Source of the DNA: a virus
Lineage: Duplodnaviria > Caudoviricetes
Reading direction: 5' to 3' (one strand)
IMG/VR virus record: IMGVR_UViG_3300012667_001007
Coordinates: 1-45,301 of that record
Length of the DNA: 45,301 nucleotides
Under the pieces are notes generated by a model, which saw nothing but the letters and a program-made list of their open reading frames with translations, searched no databases and was not told the DNA's origin. How positions within the stretch are numbered: position 1 is the stretch's first letter; the number at the start of each line of letters is the position of its first letter. Position numbers and translations under genes: made by a program. Shown in pieces: positions 24,869-31,994 of this stretch.

Positions 24869-25060
24869 ATGAAAGCCTACGCATACAATAGTATTGGAGA
24901 GTTTATCGGTGAAGTTGACTGCCAACCAAACCCTCTTGAATGGGGTGAGTTTATTGTGCCTGCTCAATCTACTACCGTTAAACCTCCGAAATTCAAGGAC
25001 GGAAAAATCAGAACGTGGAACGGCAAAAAATGGGTGTTCAGAAAAAAGACTGCGGAGTAG
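24869..25060 (+). CDS. Tail fibre assembly-like small protein
   Basis: GEFIGE...PLE.GEFIVPAQSTTVKPP...WNGKKW; follows the fibre gene. Confidence 0.75.
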   Translation: MKAYAYNSIGEFIGEVDCQPNPLEWGEFIVPAQSTTVKPPKFKDGKIRTWNGKKWVFRKKTAE

Positions 25061-25122
25061 AGCAGTGGTAGCTCGCCTGACTCATTATCAGGAGGTCGCA
25101 GGTTCGAGTCCTGTCTCCGCTA
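25051..25122 (+). tRNA. tRNA with CAT anticodon, initiator(fMet)-like body, atypical anticodon arm
   Basis: TGCGGAG/CTCCGCT acceptor, GAGC/GCTC D stem, CCTGA-CTCATTA-TCAGG anticodon arm, GCAGG-TTCGAGT-CCTGT T arm; no encoded CCA. Confidence 0.88.
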
Positions 25123-25160
25123 CGAAGCGTTCCATGTTTCTTGATTGATTCCTGCTAGCG

Positions 25161-25422: not shown

Positions 25423-26583
25423 ATGCTCACGGACGTGGGAATTCGCTCAGCTCTCCGTGCTGGCGGTAACAAGGTATTGACAGACGGTGGAAAACGTGGG
25501 TCTGGCAGACTCACCCTCAGCATACGTGAGGGAGTTCGTCCAGAATGGTATGCCGTCAAATGGATTGAAGGCAGACGCCGCACCGTCAAAATCGGAACGT
25601 TTCCAGACATGTCGCTCTCCGATGCCAGGGAGCGATTCAAGGACGGTGTGACGTTCATCAAACCGCAGAAACGCGCCACGCTCGAACAGCTCATTGCGGA
25701 CTATTCCTCTCACCTCGAGTCCAAGGGCAAGCGCAGCACGGACGAGATACGGAGAACGCTCAACCGCATGGCTGAGGTTATCGGAAAATCGAAGCCTGCT
25801 AACGAGGTGACAACGTCCGATATCGTGGAAGCCATCCGTCCGATTTATGCAGGTGGAGCTCCGTCCATGGCCGACCACATGAGGGGCGCGATGCATGCGT
25901 GTTACGGATGGGTGCTCAAGTCACAAAACGATTACCGAACGCACTCTGAGTTGAAGGAGAGGTTCGGACTCACGTCGAATCCTGCTAGTGGAATTCCCAC
26001 AGAGCCAAAAGTGAAAGGGGATAGGTGGCTATCCACAGATGAGCTTGTGGCATTCTGGAAATGGCTACATATTGGATATCGTAACTCGAACAGAAACACC
26101 GACCCCAAGAACCTTGTCGCTCTGCAGGTGTTGATTCTCACAGGTCAGCGTGTGGAAGAGGTGCTGCGAATCGATACGTCCATGGTGGACAGGCAGCTTC
26201 GTGTCATTGACTGGCAGAAGACCAAAACAGGAAACGAGCACATCCTGCCAGCGACAGGTCAAGTGCTCAGACGTTTAACATGGTGCAAGCGCACAGGAGA
26301 GGGAACGTACTTCAACTCGGACGATTCAACGCTGAGAATGATATGCAAGTCGTTTGTCTATGTTTCTGGAATAGAGCCGTTCACAACGCGCGACTTGAGA
26401 AGAACATGGAAAACCCTCGCTGGATTGGCAGGGGTTAGTAAGACAGACCGAGACAGGGTTCAGAACCACAGAAACGGTGACGTGAGCTCCAAGCACTACG
26501 ACCGATACGACTACCTCAATGAGAAACGAGCTGCGTTGGAATCGTGGGAACGCTGGTTTCTGGACAAAATAAAAGCCACCTAG
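25423..26583 (+). CDS. int: Tyrosine integrase with N-terminal arm-binding domain
   Basis: MLTD...KIGTFPDMSLSDARE arm domain; TGQR, KTK, RDLRRT, QNH, HYDRY catalytic motifs. Confidence 0.93.
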   Translation: MLTDVGIRSALRAGGNKVLTDGGKRGSGRLTLSIREGVRPEWYAVKWIEGRRRTVKIGTFPDMSLSDARERFKDGVTFIKPQKRATLEQLIADYSSHLESKGKRSTDEIRRTLNRMAEVIGKSKPANEVTTSDIVEAIRPIYAGGAPSMADHMRGAMHACYGWVLKSQNDYRTHSELKERFGLTSNPASGIPTEPKVKGDRWLSTDELVAFWKWLHIGYRNSNRNTDPKNLVALQVLILTGQRVEEVLRIDTSMVDRQLRVIDWQKTKTGNEHILPATGQVLRRLTWCKRTGEGTYFNSDDSTLRMICKSFVYVSGIEPFTTRDLRRTWKTLAGLAGVSKTDRDRVQNHRNGDVSSKHYDRYDYLNEKRAALESWERWFLDKIKAT

Positions 26584-27599: not shown

Positions 27600-28388
27600 T
27601 TACATTTTTATCCAACCGGGTAGGTTGAGTGGTTTCGCTTGAACATCATATCCCGGCCATGTGTTGCTTTGCTTACATTCTAGGTATGTTCGGAGATCGT
27701 TCCTGTACAGATGCCGTCCGTACTGAAACATCTCGTCCGATGCGTAGAATACATTTACTAGGTACGGAGGAGACTTCTCAACGGCAACGAATATGAATCC
27801 ATTTGGAGTGATGTTATTTGCTATCGAGCCGTCAAGATACATTGGTGCTTGAACGTGATATCTGTACTTGAAGGACGAACCCTCAAACCCACGCTGTGAG
27901 GCGTCCTCTGTTGACTTCAAATCAACTATGAAATTGAAATCATAATCGTACCAATCTTGACGGCACTTGCACAGTGCACCTGTTTCAACGTCCTGCCATT
28001 TGAGCGTGCGCTCTGCGACACCATTCCTAAGCAACTGTGATGCAATAGGATGCTTCATTACAGCGTCACGCATTCGGCTGACCTTTTCGTACTGCTCCAT
28101 TGTGATGATGGATTTATCGGCGTGCTCGAGGTCGAACGCTTCGCCTTTGGCAACGCTCCCTGTGCCTGTGAATTTAGGCTTCACGATGAAGTGGTGCGCG
28201 AATTTCTGGAACTCCAACGTCAAAACGTGGAATGCGTTTCCCTCCACCAGGGCAGGTGTTTTCTTTTCGGGTGATCGCTCTGGATTCAAATAACGCTCGT
28301 AGTAGAATGCAGGTGCCTTAGCTATAAGGTCCAGTCCTGACTTCGATATTCTCGAGACGTCACTATGATACATGTCATTTACCTTCAT
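27600..28388 (-). CDS. RecE/exonuclease VIII-like PD-(D/E)XK nuclease (DUF3799-like)
   Basis: ISKSGLDLI, GNAFH, CKCRQD, IVDLKST, YHVQAPMY, FIFVAVEK; start moved to ATG 28388, downstream of the promoter. Confidence 0.88.
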   Translation of the reverse strand: MKVNDMYHSDVSRISKSGLDLIAKAPAFYYERYLNPERSPEKKTPALVEGNAFHVLTLEFQKFAHHFIVKPKFTGTGSVAKGEAFDLEHADKSIITMEQYEKVSRMRDAVMKHPIASQLLRNGVAERTLKWQDVETGALCKCRQDWYDYDFNFIVDLKSTEDASQRGFEGSSFKYRYHVQAPMYLDGSIANNITPNGFIFVAVEKSPPYLVNVFYASDEMFQYGRHLYRNDLRTYLECKQSNTWPGYDVQAKPLNLPGWIKM

Positions 28389-28415
28389 ATTGTAGTGTGT
28401 GTAAAAATATTTATG

Positions 28416-28453
28416 CAAATATAACTATATATCAAAAAAAAACAATATATTTG
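28416..28453. promoter_or_regulatory. Back-to-back divergent promoters
   Basis: TATATTTG on the minus strand (28423-28416) and the plus strand (28446-28453). Confidence 0.7.
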
Positions 28454-29595: not shown

Positions 29596-30987
29596 ATGTT
29601 CGCATTAAGACCATACCAAGAACTCGGAGTTCAAGGTATCAGAGAATCGTATATCAAAGGGAGCAAAGCACCGCTATTCGTACTACCTACAGGAGGCGGC
29701 AAAACCGTAGTGTTCTGCTACGTCGCAGCAACCTCATCCGCTCGAGGGAAGCGTGTCCTTATTCTGGTGCATCGAGTAGAACTACTTAGACAGACATCCG
29801 CAAAACTACGTGAGGCAGGTGTCCACCATGGACTCATCTCACCGAAGTACACTCCAGACAAAAGTGCACCCGTTCAGGTGGCGAGCGTTCAAACACTCAT
29901 CAAACGCCTGGATAAAATCATACCCCCTGACCTCATCATTATCGATGAAGCACATCACGCCATTGCAGGATCATGGAGAACAATCGTTCAGTCGTTCCCA
30001 AACGCCAAAGTTCTAGGGGTGACGGCTACACCTTGCAGGGGTGACGGAACAGGACTCGGACAGTCCGCAGGTGGTGTGTTTGACGATCTCGTTATGGGAC
30101 CGCAAATCTACGACCTAATCGACATGAACTTTCTGGTGAAGCCTATCATATATGCACCTCGTGAAAAACTTGACCTGTCACAGGTGCGAACGATTCGGGG
30201 AGACTACGACGCCAAGCAGGTGAGCGATATTGTGGACAAGCCGACAATTACAGGGGATGCCGTCAAACACTACATGCGCATCTGCCCTGGTGCTCCTGCC
30301 GTCGTGTTCTGCGTATCGGTGAATCATGCTCAGCACGTTGCTGAGGAGTTCAGACGTGCAGGCTATCGAGCGTACCATGCAGACGGAACATTGGATGACG
30401 ACGTTCGAGCTCGCATCCTAAACGGACTAGGGAACGGAACAGTGGACGTGGTGACGTCGTGTGACCTCATCTCTGAGGGAACGGATATCCCTGCCATTGG
30501 GTGCGCTATCCTGCTCCGTCCGACACAGTCGCTAGGTTTGTATATCCAACAGGTGGGAAGAGCTCTCAGAACGGCTGACGGAAAGCAGAACGCTTACATT
30601 CTGGATCACGTGGGAAATGTCCTAACGCATGGACTACCAGAGGAACACCGTGAGTGGTCGCTGGATGGAGAGGCGCGCAAGAAGAAGAAGAAAAGGGATG
30701 AAGAGCCGACCGTTCGTGTGGACCAATGCGAGAGATGTTACTCGATATACGCACCTAGTCCTGTGTGTCCTGTCTGTGGACACGCCAAGAAGGTGAAGAG
30801 CGACATTCCTACCGCCATTGATGGTGAGTTGGTTCAGTTGACGGCTGAGCAAATGAAACGAAACAAGGTCGTTGAGGTGGCAAAAGCAAGGACATTGGAG
30901 GAATTGGAGCGCATCCAACAGGAGCGTGGATACAAGGCTGGATGGGCGAAACACCTATACAACAGTAGAAAATCGAAAATAAATTGA
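29596..30987 (+). CDS. SF2 DEAD/DEAH helicase with C-terminal zinc finger
   Basis: LRPYQ, PTGGGKT, DEAHH, TATP, QQVGRALR, CERC/CPVC. Confidence 0.95.
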   Translation: MFALRPYQELGVQGIRESYIKGSKAPLFVLPTGGGKTVVFCYVAATSSARGKRVLILVHRVELLRQTSAKLREAGVHHGLISPKYTPDKSAPVQVASVQTLIKRLDKIIPPDLIIIDEAHHAIAGSWRTIVQSFPNAKVLGVTATPCRGDGTGLGQSAGGVFDDLVMGPQIYDLIDMNFLVKPIIYAPREKLDLSQVRTIRGDYDAKQVSDIVDKPTITGDAVKHYMRICPGAPAVVFCVSVNHAQHVAEEFRRAGYRAYHADGTLDDDVRARILNGLGNGTVDVVTSCDLISEGTDIPAIGCAILLRPTQSLGLYIQQVGRALRTADGKQNAYILDHVGNVLTHGLPEEHREWSLDGEARKKKKKRDEEPTVRVDQCERCYSIYAPSPVCPVCGHAKKVKSDIPTAIDGELVQLTAEQMKRNKVVEVAKARTLEELERIQQERGYKAGWAKHLYNSRKSKIN

Positions 30988-31000
30988 AAAAAAATGTGTG

Positions 31001-31037
31001 TATATTTGCATATATGAATTTTTATTCCATATATTTG
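31001..31037 (+). promoter_or_regulatory. Tandem TATATTTG elements upstream of the small-gene/ncRNA unit
   Basis: TATATTTGCA at 31001 and 31030. Confidence 0.65.
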
Positions 31038-31059
31038 CAAACACACAAACGGAGAAATC

Positions 31060-31293: not shown

Positions 31294-31382
31294 TTACAAA
31301 AAAGAACTGAGGCTCGGCAGCTTACCCCCTTGTTCACTTTCAAAATCTGGGAAATATGAATAATGCACGCAAGGGGGTTTAT

Positions 31383-31450
31383 AGTCAGGTGGCGGAATGG
31401 TGCCTATATGCGGAGCGTGCTATAAACAGGTTCGAATCCTGTCCTGACTA
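31383..31450 (+). ncRNA. tRNA-like RNA 1 (perfect acceptor and T arms, degenerate D/anticodon region)
   Basis: AGTCAGG/CCTGACT, TGGCGGAATGGT, ACAGG-TTCGAAT-CCTGT. Confidence 0.8.
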
Positions 31451-31517
31451 CAAAGGTATAGGCGCAATAACTTCCAGTTTCTAATAGAACGCTGACAGCT
31501 TGGAAAGACAAGCAGCA

Positions 31518-31603
31518 TACGCTGAGAAGGTAACTGGGTTGCCCGAGTGGACGGTACATCCACAGTATTAAAATGAAGGACGTTCGAATCGTCAGCAGCG
31601 TGC
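31518..31603 (+). ncRNA. tRNA-like RNA 2 (degenerate cloverleaf with GTA at the anticodon position)
   Basis: TACGCTG/CAGCGTG; GGTAAC/GTTGCC; GTGGA-CGGTACA-TCCAC; 14-nt variable region; GACG-TTCGAAT-CGTC. Confidence 0.65.
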
Positions 31604-31624
31604 AAATATTTAAAGAAAGCAACT

Positions 31625-31753
31625 ATGAAAAAGTCTACAGCAATTATTATGAACGCAGCAATCAGCGTTATTGGATTCACAACAGGAATCTACATCATGT
31701 TTGGAGGTGCAATTCTATGTCTAGGGTTGATACTACTATCAAAATCCAAGTAG
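31625..31753 (+). CDS. 42-aa membrane protein, below the ORF-track cutoff
   Basis: MKKSTAIIMNAAISVIGFTTGIYIMFGGAILCLGLILLSKSK*; stop lies 1 nt before the next ATG. Confidence 0.65.
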   Translation: MKKSTAIIMNAAISVIGFTTGIYIMFGGAILCLGLILLSKSK

Positions 31754-31754
31754 C

Positions 31755-31994
31755 ATGCAGACATCAACAGTTACAATAGGCAGAGGGTTGTGCCTTACTC
31801 CTGTTACAGTGGTCCACAATCTAGAGGAGTTTGGAGCGGACATTCAAAAGGCGGCATACGCCTGGTATCCACGTAGACATAATACAACCGTTGAGATGTT
31901 TTGCAGGTATATCCGTCAACGCGACGTTAAATTCATCTGCATTCCTTTGACGGAGGCAGTAAAAATCAGTAATCACTTAAAATCAGTTATATGA
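31755..31994 (+). CDS. Hypothetical protein
   Basis: Tightly packed; ATGA overlap with the next gene. Confidence 0.55.
   Translation: MQTSTVTIGRGLCLTPVTVVHNLEEFGADIQKAAYAWYPRRHNTTVEMFCRYIRQRDVKFICIPLTEAVKISNHLKSVI

Follow-up and report, generated by a model that had tools for sequence, protein, structure and literature searches.

In the tRNA punctuation of mitochondria, tRNA-shaped sequences serve as RNase P cut marks within a longer transcript, and the attC cassettes of integrons combine constant ends with a variable centre and tightly framed small ORFs. The closest described phage RNAs are RNA1 and RNA2 of T5, which adjoin the stable RNAs I and IV and are annotated in GenBank AY543070 as "tRNA-like stable RNA with unknown functions". 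According to PMC11143913, model substrates that consist of an acceptor and a T arm are cleaved by RNase P, and U at position -1 is the commonest leader base. PMC9976931 places leucine identity in A15-U48, G18G19 and A20a and describes the anticodon arm as dispensable for aminoacylation. Additionally, some allo-tRNAs are thought not to translate (PMC5389517).

The window analysed here is the whole of a 45,301-base virus record (IMG/VR IMGVR_UViG_3300012667_001007). Terminase, tail-sheath and baseplate-like genes can be read off the translations, and a tyrosine integrase, a DUF3799 exonuclease, an SSB, a helicase, an exonuclease and a primase are also encoded. Behind the helicase gene, between two small ORFs, lies a slot of 300 bases that holds the elements described below; close relatives fill it with other sequence or lack its elements, and sequence comparison indicates that it is an exchangeable module. 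On direct reading, the four features originally predicted here (a, b, c and d) lie where they had been placed.

27600-28418: gene of the DUF3799 exonuclease
31001-31037, plus strand: promoter-like pair, two TAnnTTTG copies (at 31001 and 31030) inside an inverted repeat
31309-31319, plus strand: conserved left slot border, common to the relative L265; contigs of runs X1, X3, X5 and X11 cease to match at 31319
31324-31378, plus strand: element a, a long-loop stem (31324-31332 with 31370-31378) and then a short T run
31383-31450, plus strand: element b, an anticodon-less tRNA-shaped frame of 68 nt, supported by the Rfam tRNA model and by family comparison
31455-31491, plus strand: module c1, conserved in sequence, with homologs in L128, L168, L177, L231, L239 and L351, with or without c2
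31492-31514, plus strand: module c2, a widespread covarying hairpin motif with its core hairpin at 31498-31513, ending about 5 nt before d
31519-31602, plus strand: element d, a tRNA-Tyr-like cloverleaf with a non-canonical loop, from its fold and one homolog (L351)
31620-31753, plus strand: right slot border, at which relatives resume matching (31620-31621), with a 42-codon micro-ORF (31625-31753)

The slot and its surroundings

The motif TAnnTTTG is a promoter consensus of the Bacteroidota type, and the pair at 31001-31037 would be a candidate promoter for the slot. The region 30975-31050 is 84% identical in L265, and a scan for sigma-70 promoters gives nothing above chance. One 9-base word that holds this motif has seven copies in the window (28423/28446, 31001, 31030, 36168, 39323 and 44058), of which the pair 28423/28446 points outwards between divergent genes. 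The host is probably a member of the Bacteroidota, because 14 of the 26 stretches matched in GTDB genomes by the 3' half of b, many of them on short contigs, are titled Bacteroidota bins. The sole canonical tRNA of the window, a tRNA-Met(CAT) at 25051-25123, lies 300 bases before the tyrosine integrase gene (25423-26583), has most of its T arm in common with b, and may be, or contain, an attachment site.

The region had been described as free of any credible ORF. A minus-strand ORF of 86 codons (31420-31680) does overlap b to d; it is not regarded as a gene, because the corresponding frame of L351 runs open through d with amino-acid changes, is shifted in c1 and meets a stop farther upstream. 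The fold energy of the whole region of 332 nt is no better than chance (z -0.19), and the values for its parts are -2.2 for a, -1.56 for b, -0.95 for d and -2.8 for 31488-31520 around c, so that only a and c fall below -2. Folding alone gives no support beyond chance, and it is the comparison of sequences that shows the features to be real. In an Rfam search at E values up to 10, the tRNA model against b is the sole match in the slot, five others lying outside it and far below their gathering scores; a, c1, c2 and d match no Rfam family at the gathering score. A blastn search of the slot against annotated phages returns only T-arm matches of 27-28 bases to tRNA-Ile of Streptomyces phages.

The exchange of the slot is seen in public contigs and in L265, the closest helicase relative (71%). 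L265 retains the ORFs on either side, the left border and an a-like stem and has no b, c or d; its record contains no frame match, though it is only 45% complete. In the X3 and X5 contigs, from two studies, 31320-31619 is exchanged for 146 other bases, and in the X2 and X6 contigs, from two other studies, the frame end at 31456 is joined to 31620-31621, with a further 80 bases in between in the case of X6. The shorter sides of these joints comprise just 21-71 bases, so that good anchoring is limited to the X3 joint. No public contig of the relatives spans 31565-31615 in the first comparison or 31536-31619 in the second. Beyond the right border, the contigs show 0-3 differences across 127-638 bases. 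The borders at 31319 and 31620 are not frame arms, and the micro-ORF at 31625-31753 has no Pfam match. Additionally, the X10 contig is without 217 bases at 31746-31964 (most of a 79-codon ORF) and the X6 contig has a similar loose end, which suggests that the next ORF is likewise a removable module.

Elements a, b and d

The 9-bp stem that had been predicted for a is present, and the element is terminator-like in shape. A terminator scan limited to loops of 3-8 nt does not call it. At the same gene position, L265 carries a stem of other sequence whose loop word is similar and whose T run is longer.

Element b was predicted to be a tRNA-like RNA with intact acceptor and T arms and no canonical anticodon loop, and the fold and the Rfam alignment both agree. 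A 7-bp acceptor stem, a 5-bp T stem and a canonical T loop enclose a centre of about 20 nt that forms just a weak hairpin with a 5-nt loop; the 5-bp anticodon stem and 7-nt loop with U33 and purine 37 of a canonical tRNA are absent. The Rfam tRNA model scores 31.5 bits (E 2e-4) against b and leaves the anticodon arm unaligned, and b is absent from the whole-window Rfam scan at the gathering score.

For d, the predicted cloverleaf with a 5-bp stem and a 7-nt loop stands, but its top half is imperfect. The loop (31552-31558) carries GUA at 34-36, as does that of tRNA-Tyr; it has G33 (C33 in L351) and C37, and neither copy has U33 or a purine at 37. Six acceptor pairs and four T-stem pairs are separated by two A.G mismatches at the joint, so that 10 of 12 positions in register are paired, and G73 follows, whereas a canonical tRNA-Tyr has U33, a purine at 37, a fully paired 7/5 top half and A73. 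The D stem is of 6 bp with a 3-nt loop, and the variable region is unpaired in the fold, or at best a barely paired arm. Judged from these features, d looks like a disabled tRNA-Tyr. The tRNA finder yields no call for b or d at default: ARAGORN names d a tRNA-Tyr only at a 90% threshold, which gives 16 calls in the window, and the Rfam tRNA model matches b only with the anticodon arm omitted and does not match d at E values up to 10.

L351, which carries c1-c2-d in other surroundings, is the sole homolog of d. Four viral scans returned 30, 2, 60 and 17 stretches, among which inspection left only L351 as a true homolog, and one metagenome scan returned 2 chance matches only. The two copies of d differ by 9 substitutions in 83 nt (89% alike), and the covariation check that had been proposed comes out in favour of the stem: six of the nine amount to three compensated pairs of the 5-bp stem, and no pair is broken. 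The placement of 6 of 9 substitutions in 10 stem positions has a P value of 4e-5 for clustering and of 0.05 for register. A block swap of the arm could be an alternative source of these changes. The view of b and d as non-decoding tRNA mimics under structural constraint is supported.

The frame family

The comparative evidence also reveals what the original prediction had missed, namely, the exchange of the slot among close relatives, the module c1 and a constant-frame family of thousands of copies to which b belongs. About 1,600 exact 25-base matches are estimated in viral contigs, a figure extrapolated from 136 stretches in 5 of 64 parts of the viral scan. Together with a few earlier loci, these stretches give 170 distinct contexts, 142 with a matching 5' strand and 28 without. 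The family members are 53-190 nt long, apart from one fused case of 278 nt, and the b of the window is the second shortest of the 142. Among the 136 strict copies, U-1 is present in 114, A-2 in 92, U48 in 116 and the GG of the D loop in 124; further upstream, T makes up 1097 of 4075 bases, and U-1 precedes 80 of 99 canonical tRNAs at the same loci. The 47 non-canonical elements that lie off the scan pattern have U-1 in 31, A73 in 36, C74 in 45 and A15-U48 in 35.

A structure-based search of the loci finds 99 canonical and 205 non-canonical tRNA-like elements, a few of which may be true tRNAs that fail the filter, and none in 3 locus shuffles. The 205 comprise 35 acceptor types, and the D stem is paired in 140 of 152. 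A single near-invariant acceptor sequence occurs in 151 of the 205, which is partly forced by the scan pattern. The centres, in contrast, make up 181 families, of which 161 have a single member. In the 70 elements whose centres were delimited, a canonical-looking anticodon arm is present in 2, versus 2.1 in shuffles. Centre folding shows no excess over downstream controls (mean z -0.57, n=68, versus -0.52, n=67), nor do closing helices exceed chance (20 of 66 versus 18.3). These comparisons indicate a family in which constant acceptor, D and T arms surround a centre that differs nearly every time and that has no anticodon arm above chance.

The members of 20 centre families turn up in different flanks, and in L139 one centre stands free. 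Two frames of L005 have a common centre, with three acceptor pairs differing on both sides. As a set, the centres resemble passengers, including some captured RNA modules, and not one conserved cargo. In the frames of L005, L051, L060, L122, L199 and L214, a hairpin is inserted in the D loop, and a second T-loop hairpin is nested in the centre in L025, L113, L201, L239 and T5 RNA2 (L467:6960-7084).

The D arm of the frames is of the tRNA-Leu type, and the acceptor and T arm are also found in the tRNA-Ile(UAU) genes of phages L004 and L220. Phage tRNA-Ile genes with the UAU anticodon occur in L004, L140 and L220; the bodies of the L140 and L220 genes are almost identical and their acceptor stems differ. 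A parent among host tRNA-Ile genes was sought in five incomplete genomes, none of which matches the pattern used. The b of the window has A48 and is without A20a; it is degenerate at these two positions and may therefore be decaying. A blastn search of one family member against annotated phages gives T-arm matches only. ARAGORN takes 40 of the 142 frames for tRNAs, whose anticodons come out scattered or undetermined, and censuses of phage tRNAs would therefore be distorted.

Modules c1 and c2

The predicted hairpin c is real (z -2.8) but is merely the core of a motif that starts at 31492, and the separate module c1 before it had been overlooked. In c1, none of the four predicted pairs has a two-sided change across 6 sequences. 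For c2, about 180 exact matches are estimated in viral contigs. In 20 copies unselected by the pattern, the four stem pairs are kept in 17, 18, 19 and 20 of 20 with several pair types, so the covariation proposed as a check on the hairpin is found.

Among 118 intact copies of c2, 25 are followed by a tRNA or a frame (24 of them at 4-7 nt), versus 8 of 409 control places; 21 others precede an ORF, and 72 precede neither. Conversely, c2 stands in front of only 10 of 146 frames. An unannotated copy lies in the enterobacterial lambdoid phage mEp390 (L465:2501-2542), between the first two genes behind the repressor. A conserved sequence adjoins it there and alone matches many of 159 annotated phage records; HK620 matches only this adjacent sequence, between qut and tQ. 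Directly upstream of c2, the loci L025, L051, L057, L060, L073 and L114 carry a non-tRNA module with a free-standing tRNA-Tyr-like anticodon stem-loop, which would make a more plausible anticodon-nuclease decoy than b.

The b centre (31400-31408) can form 9 pairs with c1 (31457-31465), which opens the acceptor stem; by modelling, this pairing may be chance or a switch. In the predicted ensemble of a b-c1-c2 precursor, the centre pairs with c1 and the acceptor is open (pair probability 0.01), and the tRNA-like fold costs 2.8 kcal/mol more, with tertiary contacts uncounted.

Neighbours of the frames and breaks in homology

The 59 distinct intervals between frames include many single small ORFs that are tightly fitted and many short non-coding modules. 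In 29 of 100 cases, versus 58 of 521 control places, the frame is followed after 10-27 nt by the start of an ATG ORF of at least 30 codons; in 39 of 87, versus 76 of 459, an open reading frame ends 0-20 nt before it. The TAnnTTTG promoter motif stands 3-4 nt upstream of a frame in only 5 of 137. One 62-kb record has 11 pattern matches interspersed with true tRNAs.

Of 133 homology ends between loci, 21 fall inside a frame arm of each partner, with arms making up 4% of the bases, and 96 fall in no arm; this count is biased because the loci are centred on frames. L141 and L172 are 99% alike on either side of one frame and have unrelated centres.

Proposed processing marks and recombination joints

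The preferred reading, to which we give an even chance of being right from the comparison of sequences, is that the tRNA-shaped elements b and d are RNase P-type cut marks and that the arms of b-type frames are also recombination joints. The slot would be an exchangeable string of RNA modules, with its transcription starting at the promoter-like pair upstream. At the 5' ends of b and d, 31383 and 31519, host RNase P would make its cuts, and 3'-trimming enzymes would cut behind them and free the RNAs between, including c1-c2 as an RNA of about 65 nt between b and d; CCA would be added by the host. The constant arms of b-type frames would provide short homology for swapping centres and neighbours, with recombination carried out by the phage's own DUF3799 exonuclease and the product of an adjoining gene that is presumably RecT-like and has no Pfam match.

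The option of processing signals, one of those originally offered, fits the family data in U-1, tight abutment and T5-like layout. The prediction that the parts read by RNase P are kept and the decoding parts broken holds in the family counts, in which the acceptor/T stack, the T loop and U-1 are constant and the anticodon side is free. Both b and d are preceded by A-2 U-1, and the features of an RNase P substrate (a 12-position acceptor/T stack, a T loop and U-1) are present, in d with two mismatches in the stack. From the sequences compared, the family retains the acceptor/T half, the D-loop GG, the 15-48 pair and U-1, and its frames closely abut small RNA motifs and micro-ORFs. The same comparisons show centres, neighbours and the whole slot to vary among phages that are near-identical elsewhere, and the breaks often lie in the arms.

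Several observations count against this reading. The modelled b-c1-c2 ensemble would leave the acceptor of b open. RNase P has no need of a near-invariant acceptor sequence, which homogenisation through recombination would explain equally well, and matched acceptor changes could stem from the movement of a centre into another tRNA frame instead of from selection. Cutting the messages of micro-ORFs on both sides could destabilise them. Additionally, c2 precedes few of the frames (10 of 146), most homology ends (96 of 133) fall in no arm, neither slot border of the window is a frame arm, the b of the window may be decaying, and d has one homolog and an imperfect top half.

An improbable alternative is that the frames are DNA-level repeats only, remnants of tRNA genes that phage recombination has spread and made uniform, as useful or neutral crossover joints without an RNA role. 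Exact identity over 25 bases in an estimated 1,600 viral stretches, centres whose folding and closing helices are at control level, the same tRNA-Ile body in two acceptor frames (L140 and L220) and the homology breaks in arms all agree with this; U-1, the 15-48 pair and the paired D stem nevertheless hold across different acceptors, d and c2 show compensatory changes, and the T5 analogues are annotated as stable RNAs. A role as decoys against tRNA-attacking defences, with b-type frames titrating acceptor-end toxins and d a tRNA-Tyr anticodon nuclease, is unlikely but the least so of the alternatives. The original proposal of anticodon-nuclease decoys does not suit b, because it presupposes an anticodon loop, for which the family shows no excess over chance (2 of 70 centres versus 2.1 shuffled). 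It may hold for d, both copies of which carry GUA within a loop of 7 nt, on a 5-bp stem that covaries, with substitutions clustered at P 4e-5. Frames reach 11 pattern matches in the 62-kb record, and their slot is variable, as is common for counter-defence genes. A defence that degrades tRNA-Tyr exists in retron Eco7 (PMC11555353). However, d may escape recognition with C37 and without U33, and two sequences that are 89% alike over d make the conservation of its loop weak evidence. In the published cases consulted, rescue by phage tRNAs acts by replacement: changes in the anticodon or stems of a phage tRNA-Tyr abolish rescue, from which the authors infer that translation is needed (PMC11555353), and rescue from P2-OLD likewise replaces the cut tRNA (PMC12445682).

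It is similarly improbable that the frames, once processed and CCA-ended, are charged by host LeuRS and sequester EF-Tu or LeuRS or donate leucine outside the ribosome. A14, A15, U48, A73 and GG-n-A occur together in 130 of 158 pattern-matched frames and 24 of 47 other non-canonical elements, although A14 and GG are partly required by the search and A73 by the scan pattern; the five are found in 21 of 21 tRNA-Leu and in 16 of 76 other tRNAs. The b of the window has only three of these five features, which may simply be inherited from a tRNA-Leu D arm, and the tRNA-Ile(UAU) of L004 and L220 have the same acceptor and, on reading, A15/U48. Additionally, CCA is encoded in only 5 of 205 elements, and d has G73. 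A still less probable combination is a cassette system in which the arms are processing marks and crossover sites and the frames, charged with leucine by an anticodon-blind LeuRS, are non-decoding mimics against host tRNA-sensing defences; if it were true, Bacteroidota phages would shuffle centres, small RNAs and micro-genes like integron cassettes. The most doubtful reading makes each frame a natural tRNA scaffold, a stable carrier with an active cargo such as an antisense guide or aptamer in its centre. The 20 recurrent centre families and the free-standing centre of L139 point this way, as does a 37-base 3' stretch (81-84% identity, including the T arm) with a nested T loop that T5 RNA2 has in common with the L025 and L113 frames; against it, 161 of 205 centres are singletons, centres carry no folding signal, and that of the window is only about 20 nt. 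The longest antisense matches of a, b, c and d elsewhere in the window are 10-11 bases, at chance level.

Comparison with known systems

A search of the literature by titles and abstract openings, mainly of open papers, returned no description of the frame family. The searchable files of the candidate-RNA surveys PMC10690425 and PMC8040213 contain no match to c2 or the arms, which could be present in the alignments of these surveys.

The proposed use as RNase P cut marks within a longer transcript resembles mascRNA and menRNA (PMC11693755), which are likewise tRNA-shaped. These RNAs, and those of mitochondrial punctuation, are eukaryotic or organellar, single-copy and not mobile, and the processing of the frames is a prediction. 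Allo-tRNAs, and polycistrons made up of irregular tRNAs, are described in PMC5389517. A drawing of d as an 8/4 tRNA with a long D stem and G73 is feasible; two of its eight acceptor positions are A.G, its D loop is of 3 nt and its anticodon loop lacks U33 and a purine at 37. The element departs from the description of the allo-tRNAs in the D loop (no tetraloop), the variable arm and the stem length (5 bp). Element b is a 7/5 molecule without an anticodon arm, unlike the 8/4 allo-tRNAs.

Theta ribozymes, according to PMC10879173, are RNA modules that abut tRNAs in Bacteroidota phages, as the modules of the slot abut tRNA-like elements; c2 differs in lying 5' of them. A theta ribozyme behind b or d was considered and dropped, with no hit of an HDV-like descriptor there (a loose one, which gave hits from 6 of 30 random starts) and no Rfam HDV match.

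The PeSL cassettes of T4-type phages (PMC2839356) are short repeats among non-essential genes at which recombination shuffles modules, and the frames are likewise repeated where related genomes swap modules, by a count biased through the centring of loci. A PeSL consists of a promoter and a terminator stem-loop, whereas the frames are tRNA-shaped with a variable interior. The likeness to integron attC cassettes lies in constant ends, a variable centre and small ORFs; the ends of a frame are tRNA arms, and the tyrosine integrase of the window lies 6 kb away beside tRNA-Met. If the role as joints is real, a tRNA-shaped repeat would join the few elements known to shuffle accessory phage genes.

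The layout of b, with acceptor and T arm kept and the anticodon arm replaced by unrelated sequence, is that of T5 RNA1 and RNA2, in which an acceptor and a T arm surround a long non-anticodon centre directly before a stable RNA that is not a tRNA. T5 RNA1 has a D loop of the tRNA-Leu type and 6 of 7 acceptor pairs, and RNA2 has 7 of 7 and a T-arm sequence in common with b; a likeness between T5 RNA I and c2 was abandoned, as the 3' strand differs. The T5 RNAs are single copies with acceptor sequences of their own and are annotated as stable, whereas the frames share one sequence in very many phages, with probable Bacteroidota hosts and with centres and neighbours exchanged, and are predicted RNAs. 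The family offers hundreds of natural variants in which the top half, the elbow, U-1 and a leucine-type set are kept and the anticodon side is free, and these features make the function of T5-type RNAs approachable by RNase P, CCA-adding and aminoacylation assays.
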